From Patescibacteria group bacterium (lineage in GTDB: Bacteria; Patescibacteriota; Patescibacteriia; JBDRGY01), in NCBI GenBank assembly GCA_043817315.1, contig JBDRGY010000002.1, positions 1,046 through 65,045 on the forward strand: a stretch of 64,000 nucleotides of DNA, given 5' to 3'. The notes below the pieces were generated by a model that saw only the letters and a program-made list of their open reading frames with translations, was not told the DNA's origin and searched no databases. Numbering within the stretch: position 1 is the first letter of the stretch; each line of letters opens with the position of its first letter. A program made the translations under genes and the position numbers. This document shows, one piece after another, positions 6,801 to 61,993 of the stretch.

Positions 6801-8891
6801 GCCGGGGTCAGTGGCGTCGTATTTGAAAGTGAAGGCGGTCCAGGTTGCTACGGCTTTATTTCCGGCAACATCCTGAGTTTTAATCCTTAAATAGTAGGTG
6901 CCTGATGACGAAGGAGCAGCAGTATAATTGGCATCAGTAGAATAACTACCAGCAGTGGGATCACAACTAACTGCCCCAAAACACACCCAATAACCGTGGA
7001 CTCCAGATGGATTACCCTCTGGTCCGGCTGCATCAGCTGCTCCTGCCCATGTAAAATACGGTCCGGTGTGGTTGTACCAAGTGGCCGTAGTAATGGCATC
7101 GCCTCCGTTTTCGGAATAACCATTGATGGTGTCTGGATTGGTTGGCGGGGTAACATCAGAAGGGGTAAAAGCAATGGAATTATCTTCAAAGATTGGAGTG
7201 TTTCCTCCAGAGGGCGTTAAGGTCAACTGATACTGGACATACTGCTCTGTGTCAGTCACGCAGCTGTTGGCGCTCATATCTGAACCGCTTCCTATTGCCG
7301 TGCAAGTTGAAAAATCTGGAGCACCGAACATCACCGCGCTGTCAGAAGTGCGCACTTTGACTGCCACGGTACCTGAGCCCGAAGAATTATAAGCAAGATT
7401 GCCCCAGTCAGCTGAGAATTCAGTGTTAAAAATATTAGAGGTGAGTGTCCCTGTTGATTCATAATCTGATAGACTAAAATCATCGACGTAAACTGTTTTA
7501 CTAGCCTTCACCTGCACTCCATAAGTACGACTAGAAGCAGCCCCGGTTACAGTACCGGTTAGTTTGTACCAACCACCAGCATCGGCAGTGAAGGCTGTGG
7601 TCACAGTTGAGCCGTTGGCATAAAGCTCCACGTCAGCATCAGTTACTTCCGAGCCGTCAGTATAGGCGTAGGCTACTAAAGTATAAGAATTTGTATCTCC
7701 TACATTAACATTCTGTAAAAGTTCCACGGTATTTGTTCCAGAAACTACCTTGGCTGATCCTGCTCCATTTCTTTTGGTGTCGGTATCCAAAGTAAGGGTA
7801 CTGCCCAAGTTAAACTTGTTAGCCAAGAAGTTTTCCACCCCGTGGCGGTCTGCGGCTGAGATCACTTCGTCATAAATCATAAATTCAGCTATACGTCCGT
7901 TAAGATTCCAGGTACCATCGGCCCATTTGCCGATGGCTAGCCGCGGACTGGAAAAAGTGGCCTGGGAACCAATGGCGCTGACGGACTGCGATACACCATT
8001 AAACCAAAGAAAATGGCGGTTTCCAGTATTAGAAACTTGCTGGGAAAAAATCTGGAACCCCGAATCTATATTGGGACCATTGGCCACACCACCGTTGTAA
8101 TAGTTATAGTAGTCATCAGCGGTTCCTCCAGGAGCGTAGCGGGAGATAGACGATCCATTACTTGGACTGGCTGGATTGTAAATGAAGTATAGGTAATCGT
8201 AATTACTAGACGGCTGATTGGTGTAGTCAAACGAGGCCACTGAGATAACAGTGATATCAGTGATCGAAGCAATAGAAGTTAAGTCCACATAAAGCACTTC
8301 TCCGTTGCCAGCTGTATCAACGTCTGGCGAAAATTGGAGAACCGCTCGGCTATTCAACTCATCTGTTTCATAAGTCGGTCGGCGGCTGGCTGACGTTTGG
8401 GAAGCGTCGTTATTGCTGCTCGATTGGTCTCCCCAAACCTGGACGGTCTGTCCGTCTGTGGCCAGGGTTGAACCATTGTCATTATAGGCTTCAGCGTCTG
8501 CTCGCCCATAAAACTCTAAACCGCTGATAGTGGTCGGATCTATGCCCAGCCAGCTGTCTAGATCACTAGAATCATCAACGCCTGTATCAGAAAATTCCTC
8601 AGTGGCTGATACTGATACCTGCCCGGCCGTGGTAGTAGCATCAATATTTGATCCTGAAGCGTATTCGTCTACGGTCGAAGAGCCTACGCCACCACTCCAA
8701 TCAGTCTGCGTCCAGGGTGAATCGGCTGCTCGGGTAAACGGCCATTGGGTAACCAGTACAACTATAACCAATACTAAAAATACCGAGATTATCATTTGGA
8801 TTCGGTACTTAACCCGGTAAATTCTAAGCCTAGCTAAAGCCTCTTTTAGCTGCTTCCTTAAATCAGAGGTTTTACTCTGTCTGGATTTCAT
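3825..8891 (-). CDS. Giant surface protein, paralog 2 (1688 aa). It has a basic N-terminal tail, a single TM anchor, a LamG-like lectin domain, many FN3-like / purple-acid-phosphatase-N-like beta-sandwich modules, and a conserved C-terminal motif.
   Basis: Single 5-kb ORF with TM segment RIQMIISVFLVLVIVVLVTQW. LamG-like signature ...LNGRIAEFMIYDEVISAADRHGVENFLANKF. Internally duplicated ~100-aa modules (NTTNSFTFSWLEP...GYYYAINA...TQQGANVFYVVAVDTAGN and NTTNSFKFTWGEP...GYYYSINQ...TQQGTNTFYIVAIDDAGN). Repeated T.EW.T......VEYG.T..YG....H.V.L.GL...T.Y.FR units. Confidence 0.9.
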   Translation of the reverse strand: MKSRQSKTSDLRKQLKEALARLRIYRVKYRIQMIISVFLVLVIVVLVTQWPFTRAADSPWTQTDWSGGVGSSTVDEYASGSNIDATTTAGQVSVSATEEFSDTGVDDSSDLDSWLGIDPTTISGLEFYGRADAEAYNDNGSTLATDGQTVQVWGDQSSSNNDASQTSASRRPTYETDELNSRAVLQFSPDVDTAGNGEVLYVDLTSIASITDITVISVASFDYTNQPSSNYDYLYFIYNPASPSNGSSISRYAPGGTADDYYNYYNGGVANGPNIDSGFQIFSQQVSNTGNRHFLWFNGVSQSVSAIGSQATFSSPRLAIGKWADGTWNLNGRIAEFMIYDEVISAADRHGVENFLANKFNLGSTLTLDTDTKRNGAGSAKVVSGTNTVELLQNVNVGDTNSYTLVAYAYTDGSEVTDADVELYANGSTVTTAFTADAGGWYKLTGTVTGAASSRTYGVQVKASKTVYVDDFSLSDYESTGTLTSNIFNTEFSADWGNLAYNSSGSGTVAVKVRTSDSAVMFGAPDFSTCTAIGSGSDMSANSCVTDTEQYVQYQLTLTPSGGNTPIFEDNSIAFTPSDVTPPTNPDTINGYSENGGDAITTATWYNHTGPYFTWAGAADAAGPEGNPSGVHGYWVCFGAVSCDPTAGSYSTDANYTAAPSSSGTYYLRIKTQDVAGNKAVATWTAFTFKYDATDPGNPSGILPNPAGFSSEDSYSFTWNAGSDAHSGIGEYCYKTGAPAATDTCIAETTVSGITSYQEGTNVFYVRSKDVAGNLLDYYTSVNYYYSANAPSEPQNLQVDPASNTTNSFTFSWLEPASHDTTIAGYYYAINAIPNANNVTYTTQTTIGPDAFATQQGANVFYVVAVDTAGNKNWSSYSSIEFTASTSAPGIPTGIIVTDSSNREQGTFRLTVTWEEPDQVGGGIDHYKVERSDDGGDTYTEISQVTGTGYLDTGLTQNAWYCYQIKATDNAEAASAASSEVCEQARGRYYEAPSLVGNPGAETRIQSATIEWLTDRECSSFVEYGETTAYGSEAGQDDHLSSHSVNLIGLEPDTTYHYRVKFTDEDDNTGYSGDYTFETADAPSAPTSLAVAPTSNTTNSFKFTWGEPVDEGVTIEGYYYSINQEPSVTNSSYTAQTTLGPGPYATQQGTNTFYIVAIDDAGNINYDNHASIEFEANTAAPGAPTNMLIIDSSDRYTEKYMLTLTWDPPTTISSGEGEEVAYIIKRSTDNKTFEDISETQSIAYIDTSLSNETTYYYKVTAKDNAGAQSAASTVVSEIPEGRYRTPPTISAGPTVTPDSFTATITWETDREADSHAEYGLTEDLGEEQGTIEESDDHTVVLEGLNAETKYYYRIRSRDIDGNIALSSISSLTTLEAPRVSEVVVSDIKLYEATISWKTNKETTSLIDYGTTTDYGSVVYDTTGSSTLSHTLKLSGLSDGTTYHFRPTGLDATDNAPESGDYAFTTLTFPRVLSVSSENKAEGQTEVKWTTNVPTTSEVEYGNEDTPSKTQGNTALVTDHSVLVFGLEDATTYQFTVRGRDQFGYEAVSPEESFTTLEDTTPPIISDVRYEANTVGSGDTASVQIIVSWMTNEPTSSQLEYGEGLSSSTYTGSTDVNPELVIDHIMVIKDLEPARTYHFRVVATDKADNETLSDSYSVLTSRKRESFLQIVIDNLSDTFSWMSNMGNLF

Positions 8892-8894
8892 TTA

Positions 8895-11800
8895 TTAAAA
8901 CAAATTGCCGATGTTTCCTAACCAGGAGAAAGTCTGTTCTAGGTTGGAGATAACTATCTGCAAGAAAGATTCTCTGGCCCTGGAAGTTAACACTGAATAA
9001 TCGTCCGATTTAGTTTCGTTTCCAGCTTTATCTACAGCTATTGTTCTAAAATGGTAAGTTCGGGCCGGCTCCAGGTCGGGTATAATCATCAAGTGATCCT
9101 GCACCAGTTCCGGATTAATATCGGTCGAAGCTGAATATGAAGTTGACCCCAGCCCCTCCCCAAAATCAGCCGCGGTAGTGGTTGGCTCATCAGTTCTAAA
9201 GGAGACAATAATCTGAATTCTGGCTGCATCACCCGATCCCACTGTATTGGACTCATACTTGACGTGAGAAATGGTAGGCGGCGTAGTATCCTCTAAGGTT
9301 CTAAAGTTGTTTTCTACTGAAACGGCCTCGTAGCCGAATTGGTCGCGGCCCCGAACCACAAAATTGTAAATAGTTGCATCATTTAAGCCAAAAAGCAAGA
9401 CGGAGTGATCGGTTACCAGGGCAGTATTACCTTGAGTTTTGGACGGTTCATTTTCATTGTAGTATTCCACTTCCGAAGTAGTGGGCACATTGGTGGTCCA
9501 CCTAATCTCTGTTTGACCTTCGGCTTTGTTTTCCGAGGTAACATCAGACACTCGCGGAAAGGTTAGGGTAGTAAAGACATAATTATCCGAATTAAATTTA
9601 TTGCCGGAAGCATCTTCTGCATAAACTCTCAAATTATAGGTGGTTCCGTCTGCTAATCCTGTCAGTTTAATAGTGTGAGTAAAGCTAGTAGAGCCAGAGG
9701 TGTCAGTGTAGGTTAAACCATAATCCGTAGTAGTCCCATATTGAATCTGGGTAGTCGTTTCTTTATTAGTTTTCCAGGAAATTGTCGCTTCATACAACCT
9801 AATATCAGTAATCTCCATTTCCGATACCCGCGGCGCTTCTAGAGTAATAAATGAGGTTACGTCGGAATAGGCTTCATTTTCATCTCGGTCAATGGATTTT
9901 ACCTGGTAGTAATAAGTAGTTTCTGGATCTAAACCGGTAATCGTCACCGAATGATCATCAATTAAGTCAGAAGTTCCCTGTTCTCGATCATAATCTGTAG
10001 CCGAAGTTCCAAACAGGACAAAGGAGGAGGCCGGTCTTTCTGTTTTCCAGGTGACGGTGGCCGCAAAGGAATCAGGTACTATGGCCGGTCCAGCTGTAAT
10101 TTCCGGCGGAGTGGTATAACGACCGTCAGCTATTTCTTCAACTGGATCAGTGGCCGCTGAAGCGGATCCGGCTTTGTCAGCTGCTTTTACCTTGTAAAAA
10201 TATAATGTCTCAAATTCTAAATCAGTATCGATATAGGCAGTAGATTTGGTGGTGGCAATAACCTCATAGTCATTGTCCTCTTCAACCGCTCTATATATTG
10301 TATAGGTAATTTCTTCTTCCAGATCTTCTTCGACTGCATCTTTTACGATTCCAGAGGCACTGGGAGGATCAACCGAATTCCAACTGACCATTATTCGATA
10401 TTCTTTATCGGCCCGGTTGGAGACATCAAAGACTTCAGGATTAAGAGGAGCATCCGGCGGGATGGTATGAGCTTCAAAATCCACTACCGCATAATTGGCA
10501 TAATTTACATTACCGGCATCATCAGTGGCCACTACGTAGAAATTATTTATTCCCTGTTGAGTGGCTGCCGCAATCGGGCCTACTTCCGTATGAGTAGTAT
10601 AATAGACATTATCTTCGTTGGGCGGGGCATTAATACTGTAGTAATAACCTCCGACCGTAATTCCCTCGTCTACCGGCTCGGCCCAAGAGAAAGTGAAGCG
10701 ATTAACCATGTTTGATTCCGGATCAACTGCCAGATTGACCGGAGCGGAAGGGGCACCCAAGGTGGTTACTTCGTATATGGCTGATTCCCCGGTATTTCCA
10801 TCTTGGTCCACCCAGACTAATTTATAGTAATAAAGGGTGTCCGGTGATAGTCCAGTGACTAAAACCTCATGCTCGTCAACCAACTCTGAGGTGCCGGTTT
10901 CTTCTCCCAAACCTTCAGTCGTTCCGTATTGGACAAAAGAGGTAGCCGGATGAGGAATAACATTACCCAAACGATCTTGATCTGGCAAAGTCAGCCACTC
11001 GACCAAAACGGACCTGATGTAAGGAGTTACCGTCGGCTGACCGGACATAGTTGGGGCAAATTTAAATTTACCTTCCGGCTTAATACTTTCTACTGCCGAA
11101 TTACCGGAAGCGGCATTCCCACTGCCAACCGCTCTGATGAAATAACTATAGGTAATGGTGTTGTCCAAACTGGTATCTAAATAACCCAAAGTGGTAGTTG
11201 TAGCAATGTTGGTGTAATTATCTGGGGGATCAGCTACTGTGGATGGATTCTCACAATCTTCCTCACAACGATAAACTTTAAAGTTCTCGGCATTGGCCGT
11301 TTCATCCCAAGTCAGAGTGACTGAATATTTTTGAGTGGAACGATCAGAGGAGTCAGTCGCCTGCAAACTGGCTGGCGGATCTGGAGCAGTAGAAGTGAAG
11401 TCATAAGTTGTAGAGGTATAATTATCGTAATCAATGTTATTAATCACATCAGCTGCCACCAGATATAAAGTATTAGTCCCTTGTTGGGTAGCCGCTGAAA
11501 AACCAGGTAATAATCTGTTGTCAGTCTGATAGGCCGAGGTCCAACCACCGTCCGGACTGGGGGTAGTATTGCCGGCCGTATTGGTACCACAATTTTCGGC
11601 GCTAGGTAATTCATTGATTGTGAAACAATAACGTAAAATTTCATTAACATCACAAGGAGTCTGACCCAAACAGGTAGCCGGTAAGCTCCAGGAAAAGGAA
11701 AAAGTGTTATTGTTTGTGGCTGAAGTAGGCGTCGCCACTAAATTTTGCGGGGCTGTTGGCGGACTACCGGCATAGTAATAAGTAGTAGTGGCATAAGAAG

Positions 11801-14800
11801 AATAGTTGCCCGCCTCATCCAGGGCTCTAACATAGAAAATATTACCTCTGGTTCGATAAGCGGTAATTTCGGTTATGTGATTGTCATCAATGCAGGTATC
11901 AACAGCGCCGGGGGCCCCGGTTTTATAACAATAATACTCAACCCCGGAACCACCGCCATCAGTTGACACGTCCCAAGAAAAATCAAAGTCATTAGTTGAG
12001 GTGTAACCCGAGGGTGTGGCCGATACGTCAGATGGGTTAGAGGGATCAATAATATCTAATTTATAGGTAAAAGTATTAGTCGGATTAGTAGTGATATTAC
12101 CGTTATTATCGACAGTTTTTATTATCAAATAATAAGTATCGGAGGTGAGGGCAGAGGCCGCCTGGGTAGCTGCATTCCAGGAACCGTCATTGCCGGAGGC
12201 TGAATATAAATTAGTGCCGGAAACATAAGCCAGGTTAGTGGGATCGCTGGCATCATCAACCGGATCTTTGCCGCTGTCATTCCCAAAATAGACATAAAAT
12301 CCTGACAATCCAATTCCGCCGGCATTATCTGCGCCGGTCCATTCAAAGTAAGGTGTAGCGTCATTAACCCAAGTATCAGTCGCAATCTCTGTTCCCCCAT
12401 CTTCGGTATAGCCGGTTGCTGAAGTCGGGTTGGTTGGGGCCGTTCCGTCAGTATAATAACTCCAAGTTAGATCATCGACCGTCGGTGAATAAAGTTGGTC
12501 AGTCACAAAATAAATTCTAACTTGTCCATACTGAGCCACGGTAGAATCAATGCTGTAATAATTAGTGCTACTAATTTCCCGATTATTGGAAACCGCTGTC
12601 CAGTCCCCCCAATTGACGTCATCTTCATCATCAGCGCAGCCGGCATTAGAACAAGTTCTAGTTTCTATACTAATAGAAGTATTAGCCGGTTCGGTTACAT
12701 TGACCGTTAGTCCTCCGTAGCCATAAACCCCAGCCTCAAAATCCAGAATTTCTGAAGTCCAATAACCGTTACCCTCAAAACCGGTGCTGGAAGTGGCCAC
12801 CACGTAACGTTCCATTGAAGTGGTATATTCTCCGCGGAAACCCAAGACCACATTATTGCCGGTCATTACCAGGTCACCGTATTCGAAGAAAGAAGTTGTG
12901 TCTCGTGTACTCCAACTATCTTCCGAGATGTCATAAACGTACATTTCATTGCCATTGGGCTCATCACCGCGCGGGATTAAAATATTTCCCTGACCGTCCG
13001 GCACGCAGGCATCGCCGTAGCGCATATTACCCGGAGCCAATGACAGAGTACCGGCCACGTCCCAAGTTTGTGAACCGATATTAAATCGATAGATATCGTC
13101 TTGATTGTTACCACGCACCATATAAATATAACCATCTCCGCCGTTAGCAGCACAACCACCAGTATAAACAGTTCCGGGGATAGCCGAGGCAACTGTCTCC
13201 CAGATATCTGTATCAATTGTGTACTTATAAAATTCTGTGGTGTTGGCGCCTCGGGCCGTATAGATAGTATTGGTTCCATCAAACACCAAATCCGATCCGT
13301 AATTAGTTTCGTTAGCCGCCGTATTGGTGTTATCCAATCTAGTCCACTTATCATCATTTATATCGTAGCGCCAAAAGGTTCCTTCATTTTCCGTTAAGCC
13401 GCTTTCTCCCGGTAATAGATAGACTCCATCATATTGGTCACTGCTATGATTTATATATTGGGCTGACGCTCCCGGTCTAACCCGCATAGGTGCATTGGCT
13501 CTGCGCTTCCAAACATCATTGGCGATATCATAAGACCACCACTCATTGGAATTACCGCCCCTGGCCACATACAGCATATCGTTATCATTATCATAAGCCA
13601 CGGCTCCGTAGTAAAAACCATAGTTGGTATATGTATGAGGCAAGGTCGGAGTTTTCCAGCGATTTTCAGAAACGTCATAGGCCAGCAGGGCATAATCAAC
13701 CTGATAGCCCCGAATGGTGTACATGGTGTCATTAGAAGGAACGTAAACCAGGTTGCCAGCCCCTCCCTGGTATTGAGTAGTCGGCAAATCATCCAACCAT
13801 TCCCAGTTTTCATTGGCAATGTCATAACGCAGAAAACCGTTAGCTGCATAACCCCGCACTAGGTAAAAATAACCATCCAAATAATAGGCGGAGGCACCAT
13901 AATGGGTCCAGATGGGCACGCTTTTTTCATAAGACCAGGTGTTGGCCGAGACCCTATAGGAATAAAAATCGGTATCGCCATAACCTCTGGTGGCATACAG
14001 ACAGCCACCTTCGTCACTGCAATAATCACCATTGGGCACATATACTAAAGTACCGCCATAATAAACCAATTGGTCAAAACCGGTCAGCTGAGTCCAATCA
14101 TCAGCCGTTTCTCCTTCTCCGACATCGGTAATAATGTTGTATTTCCAGAACTCATTGGTGGCATCTCCCCTGGTGGCATAAATAGCATTGGCGCCATCAT
14201 AGGCCAGTTGACTACCATAATAGATTTGGGACCCTTCGAAATCACTCAGGTCTGTCCAGGTGCCGGCATTAACGTTGTAGCGGCGGAAAGTGGCGGTGTT
14301 GTTACCGCCGGTGGCAAAAACACAACCTGCCGAATCGGCACAATAGGTACCGGTTGGCACATAGACCATACTGGCGCCACCGTAAACCCCCGATCCGTAA
14401 TTGGCCAGTTGAGAATAAGTTTTATCGGCTACCGAGTAAGCGTAAAATTCCTGGCGGTTGTAACCGCGGAACATAAAAATGGTGTCATCGCCGTCATAGG
14501 ACAATCCCGATCCGTAGTAACCGCCGACATTATTGGCCACCCAGGGAATGGGTGCTTCGTTGGTCCAGATGCCGTTGCTGACTGAATCCAAAGTCAGGCT
14601 GGTCCCGGATTCAGCCGCCGTATTGATATTGGTCTCCAAAGTTCCGGTCGCTTGGAAATCGGCCTGGACCGTCCAGGTATTGGTACCGGCCGGAGAAATA
14701 CCGTTATAGGTATAAGTAAAGATAGTCTCTACATCATCCGTATTGCCGGCATCATCCTTGGCCGCCACCCGCAAATAATAAGTACTGCTGTTGGTCAGAT

Positions 14801-17800
14801 CGGTATTGACTTCGTAAGTGGTTCCGGTTTGAAAATAATCTTCGGAACTGGTCGGATCGTGAGAGGCGTTGGTAGTCCAGGACAAGTAATACCCGGCCAA
14901 GCCTGATTCGGCGTCCACAGCCCCGGTTAGTTCGAAGTAAGGATTAATATAATAGTAGGAATTGCCGGTGGTTAAAGCAGTTCCCTTGGTTGAATCAGCG
15001 TAACCGACCACAGTCGGGTTAGTCGGATTGACTGAATCCTTTTCGTAGTTAATCGTAAATTCAGAAACAGTTGGAGTATTATCGTCATCCGAATTTAAAA
15101 CCACTTTGACCTGAATATAACGATTAGCCGAAGAACCAATGGTGGTGCCGGAAACTTGAGTCCAGTCCTCCCAGGAAACTTGGTCATCAGAAGTCCTGGT
15201 GTAGTAGTCAATTGTACTACCCCCCGGCTCTAAATCAGTGGCCGTAAAACTGTTAAACGAGGTAGCGTAAGTCAGATCGTAAGTCGGAGAAATCCAACTG
15301 GCTGTGGGAATGTAATCATCAGAATCGGTAGTAAATTTATAAATGGAATTGGTATCAAACCCTCGGCGAATGTACATGGTATCAGTGGCATCATCATGAG
15401 CCATGCCAATGCCACGGACAAAATTATCAGGAGTATCACTGGCCCGGCTCCAACTATCTCCCGAGATGCTGTAGCGCCACATAGAGGTGCCGAAATTGCC
15501 GGTAATGGCGTAGATACTGTCATCTCCGTCATAGGCCAACACTGCGTTGTAATAGGAACCTTCCGGTAAGTCGGCCAATTCGGTGAAGTCATCGCCAACC
15601 GGATCGTATTCGTAAAATTGAGCCCGATAATAACCGGCTAGCATATACACTTTGTTGCCATCGTTGGTTATTCCTGCACCATAATAAGCGGTCACCGGTA
15701 GATCTTCTGTAGTCCAACTGCCATCATAATGATAAATATCGTCAGTATTGTTGCCTGCCTGAATATAGACGTCACCATCACCAAAACAGGTGATTCCCCC
15801 TCCTTCTTCCACCGCTCCCGGCATACTGCCAATACTGGACCAGCCTCCGGCATCATTGCTGATGTCATAACTGTAAAAATTAGTTGTGTTAATACCCCTG
15901 GTCAAATACAGTTCTCCATTGCCGTCATAACACAGCGAGCCGCCCCGGCTGATATTGGCTAAGCCGGTCGAGGTCATGGTGTTCCAGGCTCCATCGGCAA
16001 TATCATAACGATAGAAAATGGTGGTATTTCTACCCTGGGCCATAAACAAACACCCGGTGGCATCAGAACAACCGTCTTCACTGTTGGGCACAAAGGTGAT
16101 CAGATCGCTGTCGTAATCATTGCTGGCAATAGCCGGGGTGGCAATAGAGTCCCAAGCCCCGGCAGTAATGTCATAACGCAAGAATTCCGGCCGGTTGATT
16201 CCGGGCAGAGCATATATATAGCCGTCAAAGTAGAGGAGAGTACCGCCTTCATCAACCGTTAACCCCCCCGGCATATCCGGCGGATTATCAAGATCTTCCT
16301 GCCATTCCTGGTCAGCAATATCGTACATCATAAACTCGTCATTGTTGTAACCGGTCATGGCGTAGATATTTCCGTTGACAGCGTCAACCGCCATGGAACT
16401 GCCGTAGCTAATCCGGCCGCTGTTGCCCAGGGTGGTCGGTACATTGGCAAAATTGTAAGACCATTGAGCCAGGCTGATATCATAACGGAAAAACTCGCGA
16501 TTGTTGCTGCCCCGAAAAGCGTAGATACAACCGGTCTCACAATAAACCGGACTAGTGCCATAAGAAACCGCTGAATAGACCAAGGGGTGGCCGTTGCCGG
16601 TATAAATCTGATAAGGATAGGGAATTGAAGAAATGGTGTCGTTCCAAGTATCAGTGGCAATGTTGTATGACCAAAACCCGTCCCGGCTGTTACCTTGCGT
16701 GGCGTACAGTTTACCGTTATTGCCACTGACCAGATCCGAACCCAAACCCCAGATGTCCGGCGCATCGCTTAATTGGGTCCAAATATTATTGGCAATATCA
16801 TAGCGAAACAGAAAGGGCACGCCGTTGGTGTCGTCCGAACCGTCCTGCCCGTTGATGGCATAAATATAACCGTCATAATAAGCTAGCGAGCCTCCGTAAT
16901 AGAAACCGGTTGGCGCATCAATCAGTAATTTCCAGATATTTAACTCCGGATTATAACGAAAGAAGCCCGGTTGGTTGCCACCCACGATCATGTAGATGTA
17001 AGTACCATCAGTGGTTAAATCTGCTCCATAATTGGCGCCTTCGTAAGTATAGATGCCATAGCCACGCTGATTGGTGGGATAACCCGGAGTATCTGCACTC
17101 CAAGAACCAACTCCGCCACTGGCAATTTGCAGATCACCAGAGGTTGTGGTCATGTCTAGTTGGTTAGGATAATATTGCCCGGCTTGCCACTCGGTTTGGG
17201 AAGAGACTGTGTAGGTAGCTGCCGTAGCGTGTACCAACAGTTGCTGAATTGATCCGGCCACTAGGGTGCCAATAATCAAAATTACAAAAATCGAAATAGG
17301 AGAAAAGTGCCACCACTTCTTTTTTCTAAGAACAATTAAAGGTTTTATTTTACTTTTTTCTTTTTTACGACGTTGCTGGGCCGATTTGCTAATTGCCTTT
17401 TGCCAACTGGCATGTTTTTGGGAAATTCTACCCGGGATAGCTATTATTGTTTTTATAAATCCAGTAGTTAATCCAATAACCCGCCGCCATCTGGCCTGAT
17501 TTACCTTTTTGGTAGTTTGAATGTCTTTTTTAAGATATCTCTTGGCTTTCAACTGACGGGCTCTAACGACACTTTTAACTTGCTCTCGTTTTTTAACCGG
17601 TTTAACAAAAATACTGGCTGTCTTCTCAAAGCCAGAACGCATAAGCTGGGGAATTTCTAATTTATCTTTTAGATTGAAAGAGTATTTAAAACCCTTGGGA
17701 CGACTAAAAACTTTACCGGAGTAACTGTTTCCTCCAGTTTTTTTGGACGTTTTCCCCAGAAATCTACGTGTCCCCATAGATTTCAACTTGTTTTTTTGGT

Positions 17801-17813
17801 TTGTATTTTTCAC
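8895..17813 (-). CDS. Giant surface protein, paralog 1 (2972 aa). It has a ~165-aa Lys/Arg-rich cytoplasmic N-terminus, a single TM, about 24 Kelch-like propeller blades in two blocks, FN3-like modules, and the same C-terminal region as paralog 2.
   Basis: Single 8.9-kb ORF with TM WHFSPISIFVILIIGTLVAGSIQQLL. I counted ~24 recurrences of the blade motif (F/W/M)(F/Y/W)(R/S/K)Y(D/N)I....W (FFRYNPELNIWKLL, LFRYDIANNIWTQL, FWRYDINDDKWTRL and others). The C-terminal ~700 aa align with paralog 2. The stop lies 3 nt before the paralog 2 start, so the two look like an operon. Confidence 0.9.
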   Translation of the reverse strand: MKNTNQKNKLKSMGTRRFLGKTSKKTGGNSYSGKVFSRPKGFKYSFNLKDKLEIPQLMRSGFEKTASIFVKPVKKREQVKSVVRARQLKAKRYLKKDIQTTKKVNQARWRRVIGLTTGFIKTIIAIPGRISQKHASWQKAISKSAQQRRKKEKSKIKPLIVLRKKKWWHFSPISIFVILIIGTLVAGSIQQLLVHATAATYTVSSQTEWQAGQYYPNQLDMTTTSGDLQIASGGVGSWSADTPGYPTNQRGYGIYTYEGANYGADLTTDGTYIYMIVGGNQPGFFRYNPELNIWKLLIDAPTGFYYGGSLAYYDGYIYAINGQDGSDDTNGVPFLFRYDIANNIWTQLSDAPDIWGLGSDLVSGNNGKLYATQGNSRDGFWSYNIATDTWNDTISSIPYPYQIYTGNGHPLVYSAVSYGTSPVYCETGCIYAFRGSNNREFFRYDISLAQWSYNFANVPTTLGNSGRISYGSSMAVDAVNGNIYAMTGYNNDEFMMYDIADQEWQEDLDNPPDMPGGLTVDEGGTLLYFDGYIYALPGINRPEFLRYDITAGAWDSIATPAIASNDYDSDLITFVPNSEDGCSDATGCLFMAQGRNTTIFYRYDIADGAWNTMTSTGLANISRGGSLCYDGNGELYLTRGINTTNFYSYDISNDAGGWSSIGSMPGAVEEGGGITCFGDGDVYIQAGNNTDDIYHYDGSWTTEDLPVTAYYGAGITNDGNKVYMLAGYYRAQFYEYDPVGDDFTELADLPEGSYYNAVLAYDGDDSIYAITGNFGTSMWRYSISGDSWSRASDTPDNFVRGIGMAHDDATDTMYIRRGFDTNSIYKFTTDSDDYIPTASWISPTYDLTYATSFNSFTATDLEPGGSTIDYYTRTSDDQVSWEDWTQVSGTTIGSSANRYIQVKVVLNSDDDNTPTVSEFTINYEKDSVNPTNPTVVGYADSTKGTALTTGNSYYYINPYFELTGAVDAESGLAGYYLSWTTNASHDPTSSEDYFQTGTTYEVNTDLTNSSTYYLRVAAKDDAGNTDDVETIFTYTYNGISPAGTNTWTVQADFQATGTLETNINTAAESGTSLTLDSVSNGIWTNEAPIPWVANNVGGYYGSGLSYDGDDTIFMFRGYNRQEFYAYSVADKTYSQLANYGSGVYGGASMVYVPTGTYCADSAGCVFATGGNNTATFRRYNVNAGTWTDLSDFEGSQIYYGSQLAYDGANAIYATRGDATNEFWKYNIITDVGEGETADDWTQLTGFDQLVYYGGTLVYVPNGDYCSDEGGCLYATRGYGDTDFYSYRVSANTWSYEKSVPIWTHYGASAYYLDGYFYLVRGYAANGFLRYDIANENWEWLDDLPTTQYQGGAGNLVYVPSNDTMYTIRGYQVDYALLAYDVSENRWKTPTLPHTYTNYGFYYGAVAYDNDNDMLYVARGGNSNEWWSYDIANDVWKRRANAPMRVRPGASAQYINHSSDQYDGVYLLPGESGLTENEGTFWRYDINDDKWTRLDNTNTAANETNYGSDLVFDGTNTIYTARGANTTEFYKYTIDTDIWETVASAIPGTVYTGGCAANGGDGYIYMVRGNNQDDIYRFNIGSQTWDVAGTLSLAPGNMRYGDACVPDGQGNILIPRGDEPNGNEMYVYDISEDSWSTRDTTSFFEYGDLVMTGNNVVLGFRGEYTTSMERYVVATSSTGFEGNGYWTSEILDFEAGVYGYGGLTVNVTEPANTSISIETRTCSNAGCADDEDDVNWGDWTAVSNNREISSTNYYSIDSTVAQYGQVRIYFVTDQLYSPTVDDLTWSYYTDGTAPTNPTSATGYTEDGGTEIATDTWVNDATPYFEWTGADNAGGIGLSGFYVYFGNDSGKDPVDDASDPTNLAYVSGTNLYSASGNDGSWNAATQAASALTSDTYYLIIKTVDNNGNITTNPTNTFTYKLDIIDPSNPSDVSATPSGYTSTNDFDFSWDVSTDGGGSGVEYYCYKTGAPGAVDTCIDDNHITEITAYRTRGNIFYVRALDEAGNYSSYATTTYYYAGSPPTAPQNLVATPTSATNNNTFSFSWSLPATCLGQTPCDVNEILRYCFTINELPSAENCGTNTAGNTTPSPDGGWTSAYQTDNRLLPGFSAATQQGTNTLYLVAADVINNIDYDNYTSTTYDFTSTAPDPPASLQATDSSDRSTQKYSVTLTWDETANAENFKVYRCEEDCENPSTVADPPDNYTNIATTTTLGYLDTSLDNTITYSYFIRAVGSGNAASGNSAVESIKPEGKFKFAPTMSGQPTVTPYIRSVLVEWLTLPDQDRLGNVIPHPATSFVQYGTTEGLGEETGTSELVDEHEVLVTGLSPDTLYYYKLVWVDQDGNTGESAIYEVTTLGAPSAPVNLAVDPESNMVNRFTFSWAEPVDEGITVGGYYYSINAPPNEDNVYYTTHTEVGPIAAATQQGINNFYVVATDDAGNVNYANYAVVDFEAHTIPPDAPLNPEVFDVSNRADKEYRIMVSWNSVDPPSASGIVKDAVEEDLEEEITYTIYRAVEEDNDYEVIATTKSTAYIDTDLEFETLYFYKVKAADKAGSASAATDPVEEIADGRYTTPPEITAGPAIVPDSFAATVTWKTERPASSFVLFGTSATDYDREQGTSDLIDDHSVTITGLDPETTYYYQVKSIDRDENEAYSDVTSFITLEAPRVSEMEITDIRLYEATISWKTNKETTTQIQYGTTTDYGLTYTDTSGSTSFTHTIKLTGLADGTTYNLRVYAEDASGNKFNSDNYVFTTLTFPRVSDVTSENKAEGQTEIRWTTNVPTTSEVEYYNENEPSKTQGNTALVTDHSVLLFGLNDATIYNFVVRGRDQFGYEAVSVENNFRTLEDTTPPTISHVKYESNTVGSGDAARIQIIVSFRTDEPTTTAADFGEGLGSTSYSASTDINPELVQDHLMIIPDLEPARTYHFRTIAVDKAGNETKSDDYSVLTSRARESFLQIVISNLEQTFSWLGNIGNLF

Positions 17814-18379: not shown

Positions 18380-19420
18380 ATGCATATAGACGAATTATTT
18401 AAGATTGCCGTAAAAAAAGGAGCCTCTGACCTGCATTTAGTGGCCAATATGCCCCCTGTTTTAAGGATGGATGGAGAATTAACAGAAATCCCGGACAAGA
18501 GCCCTCTCTCTTCCGAGGAAACCAAGGCTTTGGTTTTTGATATTCTAACTGACAGGCAAAGGGAGAAATTCATCGCTGAAAGAGAACTGGATATGTCTTA
18601 TGAGATAAAAGGAGTATCTCGTTTCAGGGTCAATGTTCACTGGGAAAGAGATAATGTCGGGCTGGTAGCTCGCGTTATTTCCTCTAAAATCCCCAGCATG
18701 GAAGAGGTAATGATGCCCGAAATAGTTTACGAACTTTGCCGTTTGAAACAGGGTATGATCCTCTTAACCGGGCCTACTGGCTGCGGCAAGTCAACTTCTT
18801 TAGCAGCCATGGTCAACTTGATAAATAATGAGCGCCGTTGTCATATCGTTACTCTTGAAGATCCTATTGAATTTTTATTTACATCCAGTAAAAGTGTAGT
18901 GAAACAGCGTCAGATGGGCACTGACTTTCTCTCTTTTGCCCAAGCCTTAAAAAGAGTAGTCAGGCAGGACCCCAATGTTATTATGGTTGGCGAGATGCGA
19001 GACTTAGAGACAATTGCTGCCGCTATTACCTTGGCAGAAACCGGTCACCTGGTCTTGGCCACCCTACACACTTACAACGCTTCCCAAACTATTGACCGTA
19101 TCATTGACGTCTTCCCGCCCCATCAGCAAACCCAAGTCAGACTACAGTTATCTCTGTTTTTAAGAGGTATTATTTCCCAACAGCTCCTACCAAAATTGAG
19201 GGGCGGCAGAATCGCCTCTCGTGAAATTCTAATTAACTCCCCAGCTATTGCTAATCTAATTAGAGAAAACAAAATCGCTCAAATAAAAACGGTAATCCAG
19301 ACTTCGGTTGACAGGGGCATGTTTACCATGGACCAAGGCATCCGTGATTTGTTTGAAAAAGGCTTGATTAGAGAAGACGTGGCCACTGCTCACATGGTCA
19401 ATCCGGAAATGCTACGGTAA
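18380..19420 (+). CDS. pilT: Type IV pilus retraction ATPase PilT
   Basis: 346 aa. Walker A GPTGCGKST, VGEMRDLETI, TGHLVLATLHT, and an N-terminus MHIDELFKIAVKKGASDLHL typical of the PilT/PilU family. Confidence 0.9.
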   Translation: MHIDELFKIAVKKGASDLHLVANMPPVLRMDGELTEIPDKSPLSSEETKALVFDILTDRQREKFIAERELDMSYEIKGVSRFRVNVHWERDNVGLVARVISSKIPSMEEVMMPEIVYELCRLKQGMILLTGPTGCGKSTSLAAMVNLINNERRCHIVTLEDPIEFLFTSSKSVVKQRQMGTDFLSFAQALKRVVRQDPNVIMVGEMRDLETIAAAITLAETGHLVLATLHTYNASQTIDRIIDVFPPHQQTQVRLQLSLFLRGIISQQLLPKLRGGRIASREILINSPAIANLIRENKIAQIKTVIQTSVDRGMFTMDQGIRDLFEKGLIREDVATAHMVNPEMLR

Positions 19421-19509
19421 ATTATTATTAAAAGGTCCGGCCAATTTTGGCTGGATTTTTGTTTTGCCTTGATGCTAAAAAGATTATATGATATAGTCAT
19501 CTGACTTAA

Positions 19510-19586
19510 GCGCCCGTAGCTCAATTGGATAGAGCGCTTGGCTTCGGACCAAGAGGTTGGGGGTTCGACTCCCTCCGGGCGTACCA
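19510..19586 (+). tRNA. tRNA-Arg(TCG), CCA encoded
   Basis: Hand-folded cloverleaf: GCGCCCG/CGGGCGT acceptor (G1-U72), D arm GCTC..GAGC, anticodon stem CTTGG/CCAAG with loop CTTCGGA, T arm GGGGG TTCGACT CCCTC, then ACCA. Confidence 0.9.
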
Positions 19587-19599: not shown

Positions 19600-19675
19600 G
19601 CGCCCATAGCTCAATTGGTAGAGCGCCTGCCTCTTAAGCAGGGTGTTGCAGGTTCGAGTCCTGCTGGGCGTACCA
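19600..19675 (+). tRNA. tRNA-Lys(CTT), CCA encoded
   Basis: Acceptor GCGCCCA/TGGGCGT, anticodon stem CCTGC/GCAGG with loop CTCTTAA, T arm GCAGG TTCGAGT CCTGC, then ACCA. Confidence 0.9.
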
Positions 19676-19694
19676 CAATATTTAACGAAGAATA

Positions 19695-20156
19695 ATGAAC
19701 AGGGAAAGATCCATTGAATCATCCCATGGAGTTGAGGATGAGAAGGAGCCCTGTTTTTATCATGGAACGACCGAGCCAAATATTGACGAATTTGAACCAA
19801 GAAAGCGCTTAACGCCTGGCGGCGTAGATCATTAAGAACAGCCAGCTGCCATCTACGCCGGTGATAATCCGGCCTTTGCAGCTGGGCATTCTATTCCCTG
19901 GTCTAGTGAAGAGGGATTTAAATTGGGTTTTGAAAATGATCAAGTTGTTTTTTGTGTACCAAAAGAGCATAAGCATCGCCTTGACCACAAAGTATTCATA
20001 TATCAACTACCAAGAGAGGGGTTTTCTCTAACTCGGGGAGAGGGCACGGGGCATTCTTTTCAGACAGAGAAAAAAGTAAAACCACTTATGGTTCAAGAAT
20101 TTGGTACAGTCACCGAAGCCATTGAGTATTTTGGGGGTACCGTAATTATTGAATAA
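19695..20156 (+). pseudogene. 154-codon reading frame interrupted by one in-frame TAA (19833-19835). Possible minimal H-Y-E ADP-ribosyltransferase-like protein.
   Basis: ATG at 19695 opens MNRERSIESSHGVEDEKEPCFYHGTTEPNIDEFEPRKRLTPGGVDH, followed by TAA. The same frame continues EQPAAIYAGDNPAFAAGHS... into the track ORF 19923..20156, which ends ...TVTEAIEYFGGTVIIE. I checked that the frame is continuous: 19836 to 19923 is 87 nt. Confidence 0.5.
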
Positions 20157-21867: not shown

Positions 21868-21903
21868 CAAAATCCCCAATCGTCCTCGGCTGGGGATTTT
21901 TTT
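21868..21903. terminator. Bidirectional hairpin terminator between the SPFH gene and hup
   Basis: AAATCCCCA...TGGGGATTT followed by a T-run, with an A-run on the other side. Confidence 0.6.
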
Positions 21904-21920
21904 ATCTTGAAAAACCTAGA

Positions 21921-22196
21921 TTATTTTAAAGCTTCTTTTAAATTTTTACCTGCTTTGAATTTGGGTATGGTTACAGTGGGGATTTGGATTCTTTCAGATG
22001 GATTCTGGGGATTGACGCCCATCCTGGCCTCTCTTCTTTTCGCCATGAATGTGCCAAAACCGGTCAAGGTAACTTCACCTCCTGATTTTAGGGTGTCCAT
22101 GACAATTTGTTCAAAACTATCCAAGACATCCTCCACTTGCTTTTTAGATAATCCGGCCTTTTCGGCAATTCTATCGGCCAATTCCGCTTTATTCAT
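21921..22196 (-). CDS. hup: DNA-binding protein HU
   Basis: 91 aa. MNKAELADRIAEKAGLSKKQVEDVLDSF...GFGTF...R.ARMGVNPQNP...IP....PKFKAGK is the classic HU/IHF fold signature. Confidence 0.9.
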   Translation of the reverse strand: MNKAELADRIAEKAGLSKKQVEDVLDSFEQIVMDTLKSGGEVTLTGFGTFMAKRREARMGVNPQNPSERIQIPTVTIPKFKAGKNLKEALK

Positions 22197-22227
22197 GAAC
22201 CCTCACCTCCTTTCAAAATTAGTTATA

Positions 22228-23034
22228 TTAAACTGTCGTTTCTTTATCGGCTCGCTCGATTTTTGTGGTCTTCTTGGTTTTGGGATCAACCTCTAGATAA
22301 ACTGCATTAATAACGGCTTTGCCTTCTTCGGGAATTTCAAAAGTGTAATTTACAGAGTCTAGAAACATCTTGATAACGTTTTCTTTGTCTACTCCAATCA
22401 CCGAATCCAGGGCTCCTATCATGCCGATATCGGAAACATATCCGGTGCCTTCTTTTAAAATCTTCTGGTCAGCAGTTCCAATGTGGGTATGAGTACCCAT
22501 GACCGCTGAAGCTCTACCGTCTAAGTAATGCCCTAGGGCGTTTTTCTCCGAGGTGGCTTCAGCGTGAAAATCAACTATCACAGCGGCAAACTTGGGCCAA
22601 TCTTTTTCCAGTTGTTCAAATATTTCATCAAACTTGCGAAAGGGGCAATCGAAGCTTTCTGTGAAAAAAACTCTACCTATTAAGTTTATCACAAGTACTT
22701 TTTTCGTGCCAACGTCTATCACCTTGTGACCAAATCCGGGTACATTTGGCGGATAATTGGCCGGACGCAGCACCTTACTGCCCTCTTCCATGACAATATC
22801 TCCCACCTCTTTTTTTCTCCAGATATGATTGCCTGAAGTAAACAAATCAAAACCAAGTTCTTCCATTTCTGCTAATGTTTTTTTAGTCACCCCTTTGCCG
22901 TGTGCCAGATTCTCCACATTTAGCAACATCAAATCAGGATCATATTGTTCCCGGTATTCTGGCACTACTTTAGTTAGTGCCGCTCTGCCTATCTTGCCGA
23001 CCACGTCGCCAAAAAACAATATTTTTAGTTTCAT
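22228..23034 (-). CDS. ymdB: YmdB-family metallophosphoesterase (2',3'-cyclic-nucleotide phosphodiesterase-like)
   Basis: MKLKILFFGDVVGKIGR..., NVENLAHGKG, GNH. It lies immediately downstream of rny, as in Firmicutes. Confidence 0.8.
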   Translation of the reverse strand: MKLKILFFGDVVGKIGRAALTKVVPEYREQYDPDLMLLNVENLAHGKGVTKKTLAEMEELGFDLFTSGNHIWRKKEVGDIVMEEGSKVLRPANYPPNVPGFGHKVIDVGTKKVLVINLIGRVFFTESFDCPFRKFDEIFEQLEKDWPKFAAVIVDFHAEATSEKNALGHYLDGRASAVMGTHTHIGTADQKILKEGTGYVSDIGMIGALDSVIGVDKENVIKMFLDSVNYTFEIPEEGKAVINAVYLEVDPKTKKTTKIERADKETTV

Positions 23035-23067
23035 ATGTACCTTTCTAGGGCGAGTTATTTCGCCAGA

Positions 23068-24600
23068 TTATCTTGCGTAATCAATTACTCTGGTTTCTCT
23101 AATGACATTTACTTTAATTTCGCCAGGATATCTCAATTCCTCTTCGATTTTCTTAGCCACTTCTTTGGCCAATTTTATAGCTCCCAGATCATCAATCTCA
23201 TTGGGCATCACAAACACTCTGACTTCTCGTCCTGCCTGGATAGCATAAGACTTCTCAACTCCTGGGAAGGAGGTGGCTACTTTCTCCAGTTCATCTAAGC
23301 GCTGCAAATACTGTTCGTAGGTGTCTTTTCTGGCCCCTGGCCTGGATCCGGAAATAGCATCAGCTACTTTTACAATAATACCTTCCAGGGTAGTGGGGTG
23401 ATCCTCGTGATGTTCCACGATCGGTTTTATAATCTCTTCGGGTAGTCCAAATTTCTTGGCAATGTCCCGACCAATTTCAGGATGAGTGCCCTGTACTTCA
23501 TGGTCTACTGCCTTTCCTATATCATGTAACAGTCCGGCCTTTTTAGCGACTGCCGCATTGGCTCCTAGCTCCTCGGCCAATAAGGCAGAGAGGTTGGCCA
23601 CTTCAACGGAGTGACGCAGTACGTTTTGGCCATAGGAAGTACGATATTTGAGCCGACCCAAGATTCTGACTAGCTTAGGATCGATGCCGGTTACTCCCAC
23701 TTCGTACGTGGCATCTTCACCGGCTTTTCGAATATCCTGAGCCAATTCTTTTTTGGATATCTCGATGGCCTCTTCAATCTTGGAAGGATGAATGCGTCCA
23801 TCAGCTATTAGTTTGTCCAAGGCTCTTTTAGCCAAGTGGCGACGGATGGGACTAAACCCAGAGATAACGATAGCTTCAGGAGTATCGTCTACCACAATCT
23901 CTACTCCGGTTAGCTGTTCAATAGCCTTGATGTTTCTTCCTTCACGGCCGATAATCCTTCCCTTCATGTCATCAGAGGGCAGAGAAACTATGGTTGTAGT
24001 AGTCTCGGCTGCATGTGAGGTGACACAGCGCTGAATAGCAGTGGTTAATAAATCTCGGGCCTTGATGTCGAATACTTCTTGGTTTTCTCTCTCTAACTTG
24101 CGAATGCGTTCCACTAAATCCTCTTTCATTTCTTTCTCGGTCATTTCCATCAATTCATTTTTAGCGTCCTCCTTGGACATCGAAGCTACCGTTTCTAATT
24201 TTTTGATCTGGTCTTGTTGAATTTCTAATACTTTCTTCTTTATTGACTCTACTTGTCGGGCTTTGTCATATACTTTCTGCTGGCGGTTCTCCAGGTCTAA
24301 CAACTTCTGATCAAATAAACTTTCTCTTTTTTCTAAACGATTTTGCAGAGATTTTAATTCTCGGCGCCTGGCCGCTTCTTCCTTTTTGGCCTCCTCAATC
24401 ATGGTGATGGCTTTGTCTTTGGCTCGTAATAAAATCTCTCTTTCTTTTGACCGGGCGTCATCAACTATTTTTTTGGCTTTAGCGTCTGCTGAATCAATTT
24501 GCCGTGCCGCCATCGATTTTCTCACCCAGTAACCGATAATCATACCACCTGGCACAGCCAGTGCCAGAAAGATGATGTACAACAGATTTAGTTCATTCAT
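23068..24600 (-). CDS. rny: Ribonuclease Y
   Basis: 510 aa. N-terminal TM, long coiled coil, KH domain (GRIIGREGRNIKAIE) and HD domain (LLHDIGKA). Confidence 0.9.
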   Translation of the reverse strand: MNELNLLYIIFLALAVPGGMIIGYWVRKSMAARQIDSADAKAKKIVDDARSKEREILLRAKDKAITMIEEAKKEEAARRRELKSLQNRLEKRESLFDQKLLDLENRQQKVYDKARQVESIKKKVLEIQQDQIKKLETVASMSKEDAKNELMEMTEKEMKEDLVERIRKLERENQEVFDIKARDLLTTAIQRCVTSHAAETTTTIVSLPSDDMKGRIIGREGRNIKAIEQLTGVEIVVDDTPEAIVISGFSPIRRHLAKRALDKLIADGRIHPSKIEEAIEISKKELAQDIRKAGEDATYEVGVTGIDPKLVRILGRLKYRTSYGQNVLRHSVEVANLSALLAEELGANAAVAKKAGLLHDIGKAVDHEVQGTHPEIGRDIAKKFGLPEEIIKPIVEHHEDHPTTLEGIIVKVADAISGSRPGARKDTYEQYLQRLDELEKVATSFPGVEKSYAIQAGREVRVFVMPNEIDDLGAIKLAKEVAKKIEEELRYPGEIKVNVIRETRVIDYAR

Positions 24601-56630: not shown

Positions 56631-58307
56631 CTACTCAATCAAGCGATAGAGATTAACCGCTTGATTGTCTTCCTCAATACCTAAAAGTGGCCAGGACTGG
56701 ATCAGTTCGAAGTTGTCAAAAATTGGATCACCATTTTTTTCCGATTCAGCAATCTCGGCCAGATGCTTACCCCAGATAGCCGGGCCCTGGTCTCCAGTTT
56801 TGGTAATCAGGTAATCAGCTTCAGTGATTACCTCTTGCCAGTCAGTACTTCTTATTCGACTGCTCAAGGCATAATCAACTTGATAATCATGATTAAAAGA
56901 TTCTAACTCCAACAAACGTCCCCAGTATTGAACGGGCTGACCCGACAAAAAGATACTGTTGGGCACTACAGCTATTTTAATCAGATTATGTTCAGATTTA
57001 TTTTGCTGCAAATCAGTTTTTAGGGCTGATGCTACCACCTCAAGGTTGTTGTGATATTGAGTGGGATAAGTAAAACCGTAGCGGACGTCAGAATAGGTTA
57101 CATTTTTATAACCATATTCTTCAGATAACGCCAATTTCTCATAAATGTTGTCTGAAAAGGATTTCACCCCCCAAGAAGTTTCTGTCCAGACAAATACACC
57201 CATTGTCAAGATCAAACCAATGCCTACATGGCGCCAGATTCGATTAACTTTCCAGAAAGAAGTAGCGGCTAAAATAGCTAAAGCCGGAAAAACCGGCAAA
57301 AAGTATCGAGACTCTTTAGAATAAAACAAAAAAGTCATAATTAGATAAGGTACAACGATCCAAGCTAACAAGAACCAGCCGTTTTTGACTCGGTTCTTGA
57401 TAAAGAAAAACAAACCGACCAGAGACCAAGCCGCCAAGGGCCAAGTCAGACTGTTTACAGTCTTGCGAACGTAATAACCGATATTATCTAAGCTAAATAA
57501 ATCTTCGGTGGGCACTGAAAAAATATTCTGCCTTGTTGCTTGGGCTGATTTCCAGATATCCTTAGCGTGAGTCAAATACCAAGGAGCAATCAGGGTTAAG
57601 ATTATAGCAATAAGAATAACTAAATTAATTTTTTTTGTTTTTCTACTTTCTTTATCTTTAAACGATTTTATTAAAATATATATCAAGGGGCCCAAAATGA
57701 AAACGACAGCTGTCCATTTAGTTAATATGGCCAAGGCAGTGGCCAGTCCGAATAAAATTGACCATTTTCTACTTTTAAAACCGTTTGATTTTATCAAGGC
57801 GGCCAACGAAGCCATTGTCATAGCTGTTAAAGGAAAATCCAAATCGTAAATCCGACTGAAATGGGCCAGCAACGGATAAAACAAAGAAATGGCTAGGGCC
57901 AAAATAGCTAGCCAGCGGTTTTTTAATAAGTAATGGGCGATGCCATAAACTGAAAGAATGTAGATTAATAACCAAAATAATAGAGAAATCTGGGGAATAT
58001 CAAAATGTCTACCGCCTATCAAGAAAAAAGTGCCGGTTACTATATAGCTAAATGGGGGATAAATAGTATCCAAATTTAATATAGTTCTGGGCTTGAAATT
58101 GGCCATCAATTCTGAAATCTGTAGGCTGCGTTGGGAGTGGCCCGCAATATCCCACAGGGGTGGACTTTGATCTTGAACCACCCAGACTATATTGACCAGC
58201 ACCGCTGCCAAAGCCACCAGCCCTAAAATTAAAAAAGAAAACCATTTTTCGCGGTACCAAATACTGATGGTTTCCTTTTTGGGTTCAGCTCTATTGTCGA
58301 TATCCAT
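56631..58307 (-). CDS. GT39/ArnT-like (PMT_2) polytopic glycosyltransferase
   Basis: 558 aa. About 11 TM helices in the N-terminal two thirds and a soluble C-terminal domain. The early loop motif (PPLWDIAGHS) fits GT-C enzymes. Confidence 0.65.
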   Translation of the reverse strand: MDIDNRAEPKKETISIWYREKWFSFLILGLVALAAVLVNIVWVVQDQSPPLWDIAGHSQRSLQISELMANFKPRTILNLDTIYPPFSYIVTGTFFLIGGRHFDIPQISLLFWLLIYILSVYGIAHYLLKNRWLAILALAISLFYPLLAHFSRIYDLDFPLTAMTMASLAALIKSNGFKSRKWSILFGLATALAILTKWTAVVFILGPLIYILIKSFKDKESRKTKKINLVILIAIILTLIAPWYLTHAKDIWKSAQATRQNIFSVPTEDLFSLDNIGYYVRKTVNSLTWPLAAWSLVGLFFFIKNRVKNGWFLLAWIVVPYLIMTFLFYSKESRYFLPVFPALAILAATSFWKVNRIWRHVGIGLILTMGVFVWTETSWGVKSFSDNIYEKLALSEEYGYKNVTYSDVRYGFTYPTQYHNNLEVVASALKTDLQQNKSEHNLIKIAVVPNSIFLSGQPVQYWGRLLELESFNHDYQVDYALSSRIRSTDWQEVITEADYLITKTGDQGPAIWGKHLAEIAESEKNGDPIFDNFELIQSWPLLGIEEDNQAVNLYRLIE

Positions 58308-61979: not shown

Positions 61980-61993
61980 TCCTTTGGCGATTA

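Follow-up and report, generated by a model that had tools for sequence, protein, structure and literature searches.

Organization of the locus

The window analysed here, a stretch of 64,000 nucleotides from a contig of a Patescibacteria group bacterium, carries on the forward strand a frame of 154 codons at 19695-20156, composed of 46 sense codons, a TAA at 19833-19835, 106 sense codons and a second TAA at 20154-20156. Translation reproduced the coordinates given in the first-pass annotation for this frame and its lone internal stop. Upstream lies a PilT-like gene (18380-19420; Pfam T2SSE, E=1.5e-42), on the 3' side of which a pattern scan found a terminator-like hairpin at 19431-19460 (+) with a 13-pair stem and then a T-run. 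Two overlapping sigma-70-like promoter matches at 19464-19497 (+; 9/12 each, one with an extended -10 TG) are followed by the genes of tRNA-Arg (anticodon tcg; 19510-19586, +; Rfam tRNA, 69.7 bits) and tRNA-Lys (anticodon ctt; 19600-19675, +; Rfam tRNA, 73.4 bits). ARAGORN and Rfam agree on both tRNAs, and the frame begins directly after the pair, as had been noted, with a spacer of 19 nt between the end of tRNA-Lys and the ATG. No promoter-like site was found by pattern scan in the interval from tRNA-Lys to the ATG, and the matches at 19464-19497 are probably the promoter of one transcription unit of tRNA-Arg, tRNA-Lys and the frame.

The frame encodes the features of a small protein with a predicted ADP-ribosyltransferase (ART) fold, and the motifs named in the first-pass annotation are present as described. 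Codons 1-46 (19695-19832, +) cover a disordered N-terminus and the strand beta1 with the Y-H-G-T motif, in which His23 (19761-19763, +) belongs to FYHGT. Codons 48-153 (19836-20153, +) run from beta2 to a C-terminal helix. They include Tyr54 (19854-19856, +), which lies on beta2 within AIYAGDNPAFAAGH, 31 residues after His23; a helix, NPAFAAGH (+), which follows beta2 in the model; a beta hairpin plus helix at residues 76-97 (+), an insertion relative to the rifampin ADP-ribosyltransferase Arr; the near-invariant Tyr103 on beta5 (20001-20003, +); a loop with Phe110 and Thr113 (+; Thr113 at 20031-20033), the latter aligned with Asp84 of Arr; and Glu144 (20124-20126, +) in the C-terminal helix, within AIEYFGG. 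The natural TAA at 20154-20156 (+) has the same position as the stop of an intact 153-aa allele, P0001.

Between the PilT (MFH1597794) and slipin (MFH1597796) genes there is a single protein accession, most likely that of a 274-aa membrane protein on the other strand. Since this accession fits the opposite-strand protein, no protein was called for the ART-fold frame. The 46-aa and 77-aa fragments of the frame were both absent from a collection of 15 billion sequences, and an exact look-up in the contig index returned no record for the adjacent PilT and slipin proteins.

Some further features of the window were recorded. Two adjacent giant frames at 3825-8891 (-) and 8895-17813 (-) encode 1,688 and 2,972 aa with many Kelch, FN3 and purple-acid-phosphatase-N-like repeats, probably as large surface proteins; the pair takes up about 14 kb, or 22%, of the window. 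The 3' part of a 16S rRNA gene lies at 63452-64000 (-) and no 23S gene follows; instead come a PlsY-like gene (G3P_acyltransf; 62449-63096, -), tRNA-Ile(gat) at 62075-62151 (-) and a PMT-family glycosyltransferase gene at 60357-62003 (-), so the rRNA genes of this genome appear unlinked at this site. Of the tandem tRNA-Phe(gaa) genes at 60031-60103 (-) and 60126-60200 (-), the latter is canonical; in the former the acceptor is shortened on its 5' side and the D-arm is aberrant. The score of this copy, 29.0 bits, equals the Rfam gathering threshold, and it is probably a degenerate duplicate.

Evidence for a genuine gene

A search with the repaired protein, in which the internal stop is bridged, returned three full-length intact homologs that span both sides of the stop: P0001 (153 aa; 99% identity, E=7e-100), P0002 (83%, E=5e-83) and P0003 (55%, E=2e-39). 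Homologs covering both sides of the stop argue against a chance ORF; as judged from these alignments, 19695-20156 is a genuine gene with a predicted product of 153 aa. The comparison with the 83% ortholog (contig L026) gave 51 synonymous and 26 nonsynonymous codon differences, divided as 20 and 8 before codon 47 and 31 and 17 after it, plus codon 47 itself. Because synonymous changes are in excess in both halves, both have evolved as coding sequence, and the codon pattern indicates that the gene is under long-term purifying selection.

The single base at position 19833

P0001 is encoded on three ENA contigs (L001-L003), which were independently assembled from three samples at a coverage of 1.8-3.5x. 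Over 2,149, 1,435 and 549 aligned bases, respectively, the only internal difference between these contigs and the window is position 19833, which is T in the window and G in all three contigs, giving GAA (Glu) at codon 47. Apart from this, only three bases mismatch, all in the final 10 aligned positions at one end of L001. A fourth ENA contig (L027; 2,674 nt) is 100% identical to window positions 21893-24566. In about 4.8 kb of unique sequence compared, the nonsense base is therefore the lone internal difference from the population sequence. Exact-pattern scans of GTDB species genomes and JGI metagenomes, with N allowed at 19833, gave no match to the site. Codon 47 is AAA (Lys) in the 83% ortholog, its column falls in a variable, indel-prone loop of the 36-sequence family alignment, and residues 41-50 (mean pLDDT 64) are the sole internal low-confidence block of the AlphaFold2 model. 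On these sequence comparisons and the predicted structure, the TAA is a single G-to-T transversion in what should be a variable surface loop, which bears out the proposal of a nonsense mutation or sequencing error.

As to which of these two it is, we have a slight preference for a true nonsense allele of very recent origin, fixed or dominant in the sample of the MAG, a reading that we regard as modestly favoured. The preference is drawn from the lack of any other kind of decay, and from the general experience that substitution errors in short-read consensus are rare and strain-level single-nucleotide variants are common. The other explanation is a base-call or consensus error at 19833, in which case the organism would have GAA and an intact 153-aa gene of the Glu-less ART fold; it is a serious possibility, though it falls somewhat short of being probable. 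It would account for the G in all three independent contigs over the site and for a lone internal difference in about 4.8 kb, it agrees with a gene that has no further signs of decay and is apparently under long-term purifying selection, and G-to-T is a known class of oxidative-damage artefact. Against an error stand the rarity of consensus substitution errors beside strain-level variants and the absence, in a mechanical scan of the window, of other obviously broken genes such as an error-prone assembly would give.

If the nonsense allele is real, translation as written would end at 46 residues, with beta1 and His23 kept and Tyr54 and about 70% of the fold lost; TAA is a normal stop and the commonest in the window, so the gene as written would yield only this fragment. 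Downstream of the stop, translation could restart in frame only at a TTG (19923), and the resulting 77-aa C-terminal piece would lack both motifs. The window copy is therefore a null allele, provided that the T is real. Truncation may also be found elsewhere in the family: a locus in a Parachlamydiales MAG (L023, 4869-5213) and one on a metagenome contig (L054, 3001-3156) match the N-terminal 55-60 residues or so only, even though the contig continues, and may be truncated or decayed family copies.

For annotation, the locus is to be treated as a one-base null allele or a base-call error, and marked as a pseudogene or corrected, not as a case of recoding. Comparison of a MAG with independent assemblies can resolve such in-frame stops without reads.

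Readthrough and recoding

It had also been suggested, as the less likely option, that the TAA is a readthrough or recoding site; programmed readthrough, a suppressor tRNA or recoding would then give a full-length protein. Two observations could be cited for it: the 101 nt from the stop form a structure of greater stability than shuffled controls (MFE -34.6 kcal/mol, z = -3.0), and the stop sits in a loop that tolerates any residue, insertions and deletions. However, the hairpin downstream of the stop is also present in the otherwise identical population sequence, behind an ordinary GAA. In the 83% ortholog, where the codon is AAA, the corresponding stretch folds differently and has z = -0.9. 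The hairpin was therefore rejected as a recoding-stimulating element. No family member that was fetched needs a stop at codon 47.

The use of TAA in the window argues in the same direction. Among the 50 window frames of at least 150 codons, TAA closes 27, TAG 14 and TGA 9; all three codons end long frames and therefore all three stops are in normal use, in agreement with the earlier remark that TAA otherwise serves as a stop here. There is no UUA anticodon among the 13 tRNAs of the window and thus no suppressor tRNA in it. The stop is neither conserved in orthologs (GAA or AAA), nor reassigned, nor accompanied by a conserved stimulatory element, and we consider recoding so improbable that it can be set aside.

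Protein family and its relation to DUF6886

In Pfam, the repaired protein did not match any ART family, and the only family that matches along most of its length is DUF6886 (PF21820), at 20.1 bits (20.6 for the intact allele) against a gathering cutoff of 27 bits. The match runs through the stop: residues 22-144 align with positions 1-130 of the profile, which has 164. Among 137 divergent relatives, 72 match DUF6886, the best with E=3.7e-9. These profile scores make the protein family look like a remote sister of DUF6886, or else a subfamily on its fringe. For DUF6886 itself no function is assigned and no papers were found in a literature search with the terms DUF6886 and PF21820.

A profile search recovered 36 proteins (E 1e-88 to 6e-28), nearly all of them "hypothetical proteins" of about 150 aa from Patescibacteria MAGs, and an exhaustive HMM search of 1.84 billion representatives recovered 182 at E<=1e-3. 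Most of the 137 relatives aligned are standalone and intact. In species-representative genomes the distribution is patchy, with members in several CPR lineages, Chlamydiae, Verrucomicrobia, a Woesearchaeote, a myxobacterium and a Rhodospirillales MAG. The homologs of a Saccharibacteria MAG (L017) and a Taylorbacteria MAG (L018) are 85% identical, which is high across CPR classes; this identity and the patchy distribution would fit horizontal transfer or mis-binning. Domain fusions are rare (a protein kinase in P0037, a peptidase M23 in P0061) and mutually inconsistent, and therefore provide no functional lead. The repaired protein had no match in NCBIfam, the PDB (phmmer), PADLOC or PHROGs, and profile searches of PDB sequences with the 36- and 137-sequence alignments gave no significant match. 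The family is a small one, mostly of Patescibacteria (CPR), with members of about 150 aa, here a cytoplasmic protein of 153 aa, and with DUF6886 as its distant kin.

Predicted fold and motifs

The AlphaFold2 model, built on the 36-sequence alignment, has a pLDDT of 86.5 and a pTM of 0.79, with the core above 94. It contains the split beta-sheet of the NAD+-binding ART fold, and its fold matches are almost all ART-fold proteins, namely Tpt1, Arr, toxins and PARPs. In the Foldseek search of the PDB, Arr took ranks 1 and 2 (prob 0.99 and 0.96; about 131 aligned columns; TM 0.41-0.44); in BFVD the best matches were uncharacterised proteins (E=2e-7), with phage Arr-like and PolyVal ARTs lower. As nearly all the matches are ARTs, the ART-like fold proposed earlier is supported for the predicted structure, and a minimal ART fold is supported at moderate scores.

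The motifs agree with this in part. In the 137 relatives, the positions conserved in at least 90% are His23, Tyr54, Ala55, Ala62, Tyr103 and Phe110. His23 lies on strand 20-25 of the model; 129 of 134 relatives have His here, and equally many (129 of 134) have Ser or Thr at position 25, so that the family has H-x-[S/T] on beta1. Tyr54, on strand 52-56, aligns with Tyr49 of Arr; 124 of the 137 relatives have Tyr at this position and the other 13 have Phe. In known ARTs, motif 1 is a His (or Arg) on beta1, usually in H-x-[S/T], that contacts the NAD+ ribose, and H-x-[S/T] on beta1 together with an aromatic residue on beta2 are the NAD+-contacting signatures (PMC8120803).

The H-Y-E signature claimed in the first-pass annotation therefore holds for the nearly invariant His and Tyr and fails for the Glu. 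No conserved Glu, Asp or Gln was found at any position of the 137-relative alignment; the acidic positions are E116 (59 of 114), E144 (70 of 133, with Lys in 20), E73 (96 of 137) and E34 (83 of 135). Glu144, proposed as the catalytic residue, is Glu in 53% of the relatives and lies in the C-terminal helix 139-145 of the AF2 model, not at the start of a strand. Of the H-Y-[E/D/Q] clade signature, the family has the Tyr of motif 2 on beta2 and not the conserved acid or Gln of motif 3. The third catalytic position was assigned from a weak profile alignment (24% probability) and the order of secondary structures, and on this basis position 113 is opposite Asp84 of Arr, with T in 52, L in 29 and I in 10 relatives. 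Arr is an H-Y-D enzyme whose catalytic Asp84 stabilises the oxocarbenium transition state; in Tpt1 and CC0527, both H-H-h, the third position is hydrophobic (PMC8120803; PMC13246000). With Thr, Leu or Ile opposite Asp84, plus H-x-[S/T] and Tyr, the family can be read as "H-Y-h", and from its alignments it looks like a Glu-less minimal ART between the Arr and Tpt1 types, not an H-Y-E enzyme.

By analogy with known ARTs, the intact protein would bind NAD+ through H-x-[S/T] (His23, Thr25) and Tyr54. The acceptor of the ADP-ribose would be a small molecule or a nucleic-acid end that offers a reactive phosphate or hydroxyl, as with Tpt1 and Arr, a proposal made because the catalytic Glu or Asp is missing; a protein side chain, the acceptor of a classical H-Y-E toxin, would not be expected. 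Alternatively, the intact protein may merely bind NAD+ or ADP-ribose and carry out no catalysis. What this adds is a fold-level assignment for an uncharacterised, mostly CPR, DUF6886-related family as a predicted minimal ART with an NAD+-binding His and Tyr and no catalytic acid, and it points to NAD+ binding and ADP-ribosylation of RNA ends or small molecules, away from protein-toxin assays.

Gene neighbourhood and possible roles

The gene had been labelled toxin-like, and the corresponding explanation would be a classical H-Y-E toxin of the diphtheria-toxin/PARP type, in a toxin-antitoxin or polymorphic system, whose nonsense mutation relieves self-toxicity. The Y-H-G-T and Y-A-G motifs do resemble those of diphtheria toxin; diphtheria toxin, the Rhs ART toxins TreX, TreTu and RhsP2 and the RES toxins are among the fold matches; and the patchy taxonomic distribution suggests horizontal transfer. 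But the family has no conserved Glu, Asp or Gln, and Glu144 is poorly conserved and helical. Nor was a partner gene found when an adjacent immunity or antitoxin gene was looked for: all-against-all BLAST detected no recurring neighbour family within 3 kb at 16 genome loci, and hence no antitoxin or immunity candidate, and the immediate neighbours fall into unrelated Pfam families (LysE, SDR, SPFH, IGPS, YgjP, aminotransferase, T4SS coupling protein, DEAD/ASCH). No PADLOC match and no evident secretion or delivery domain were seen, and the relatives are mostly standalone and intact. The toxin label is not borne out, nothing supports a toxin-antitoxin or polymorphic-toxin role, and we regard it as very unlikely.

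A same-strand tRNA lies 15-45 nt upstream of the ART-fold gene in several lineages, and its identity varies. Besides the window (19600-19695, Lys(ctt)), such loci were L031 (398 to about 504, Lys(ctt)), L026 (1-43, a tRNA 3' end), L029 (1186-1379, Cys and Leu(taa)) and L017 (4864-4992, Ser(tga)); the gap is wider, 280-360 nt, in L028 (1831-2332) and L012 (1773-2206). The arrangement occurs at about 5 of 45 loci, which go back to about 3 independent events, versus about 2 of 54 (~4%) other genes of the window, and tRNA adjacency was rejected as a family trait, being at most a weak enrichment over the 45 loci. In the window, a PMT-like gene (56631-58307, -) starts about 20 nt after a same-strand tRNA-Pro and a 408-aa frame (58782-60008, -) about 20 nt after a same-strand tRNA-Phe, and therefore tight packing of genes behind tRNAs seems general in this genome. 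In the Patescibacteria MAG STD1_130 (L010, 2837-5459, the same as L004/L005, 1849-4471), CYTH, NUDIX, AAA_33 kinase and HIT genes are tightly packed on one strand with the ART-like gene last, a cluster of nucleotide/RNA-end chemistry seen at one locus only.

A broader idea is that DUF6886-like proteins form an unrecognised, CPR-enriched clade of Glu-less ARTs, with H-x-S/T, Tyr and a hydrophobic third position, whose substrates, like those of Tpt1, would be RNA or tRNA ends or nucleotides. The tRNA adjacency with its probable co-transcription, the STD1_130 gene run and Tpt1 as best structural match would fit it, and we hold it to be unlikely. Overall, the first interpretation of the locus is partly supported: the gene is a new member of the known ART superfamily with a one-base defect of an ordinary kind, and neither the point defect nor the fold assignment will surprise specialists.

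Comparison with known systems

Compared with the H-Y-E ARTs of the diphtheria toxin/PARP type, the family lacks the conserved catalytic Glu, the delivery or regulatory domains and an immunity partner. ART-PolyVal (PF18760) was matched weakly by 7 of the 137 relatives (E about 0.01, all sub-threshold); unlike the ARTs embedded in polyvalent proteins, members of the family are standalone, and none matched PHROG.

The RNA 2'-phosphotransferase Tpt1/KptA belongs, with its C-terminal NAD+-binding domain, to the H-H-h clade, in which the second motif is His, whereas the family has Tyr or Phe. In Tpt1, three residues (R-H-R) of the catalytic R-H-R-R tetrad sit on an N-terminal winged-helix lobe (PMC8120803); the family is without this lobe and does not show the two-lobed R-H-R-R organization. 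The family profile did align "FLYHGS...ePrkR" with "FLYHGTP...LKPMKRQ" of Tpt1, which was not significant (E=1.9). The weak sequence links to Tpt1 and to Arr agree with the fold matches.

Arr (PF12120; PDB 2HW2, 9IAF and 9IBA) has no significant sequence similarity to the family: the window protein, the intact allele and the relatives gave no Pfam match to PF12120, and the 36-sequence profile, when aligned by hhalign to individual Arr sequences, reached a probability of <1%. A local, low-stringency profile-profile alignment to the Arr profile, with Arr sequences checked against PDB entries 9IBA and 2HW2, was collinear over 121 columns (E=8e-4, probability 24%). This weak alignment pairs His23 with His19, Tyr54 with Tyr49 and Thr113 with the catalytic Asp84, and leaves residues 76-97 as an insertion. 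Relative to Arr, the family thus has an extra beta-hairpin and helix (residues 76-97) and a non-acidic Thr, Leu or Ile opposite Asp84, and its standalone gene arrangement resembles that of Arr.
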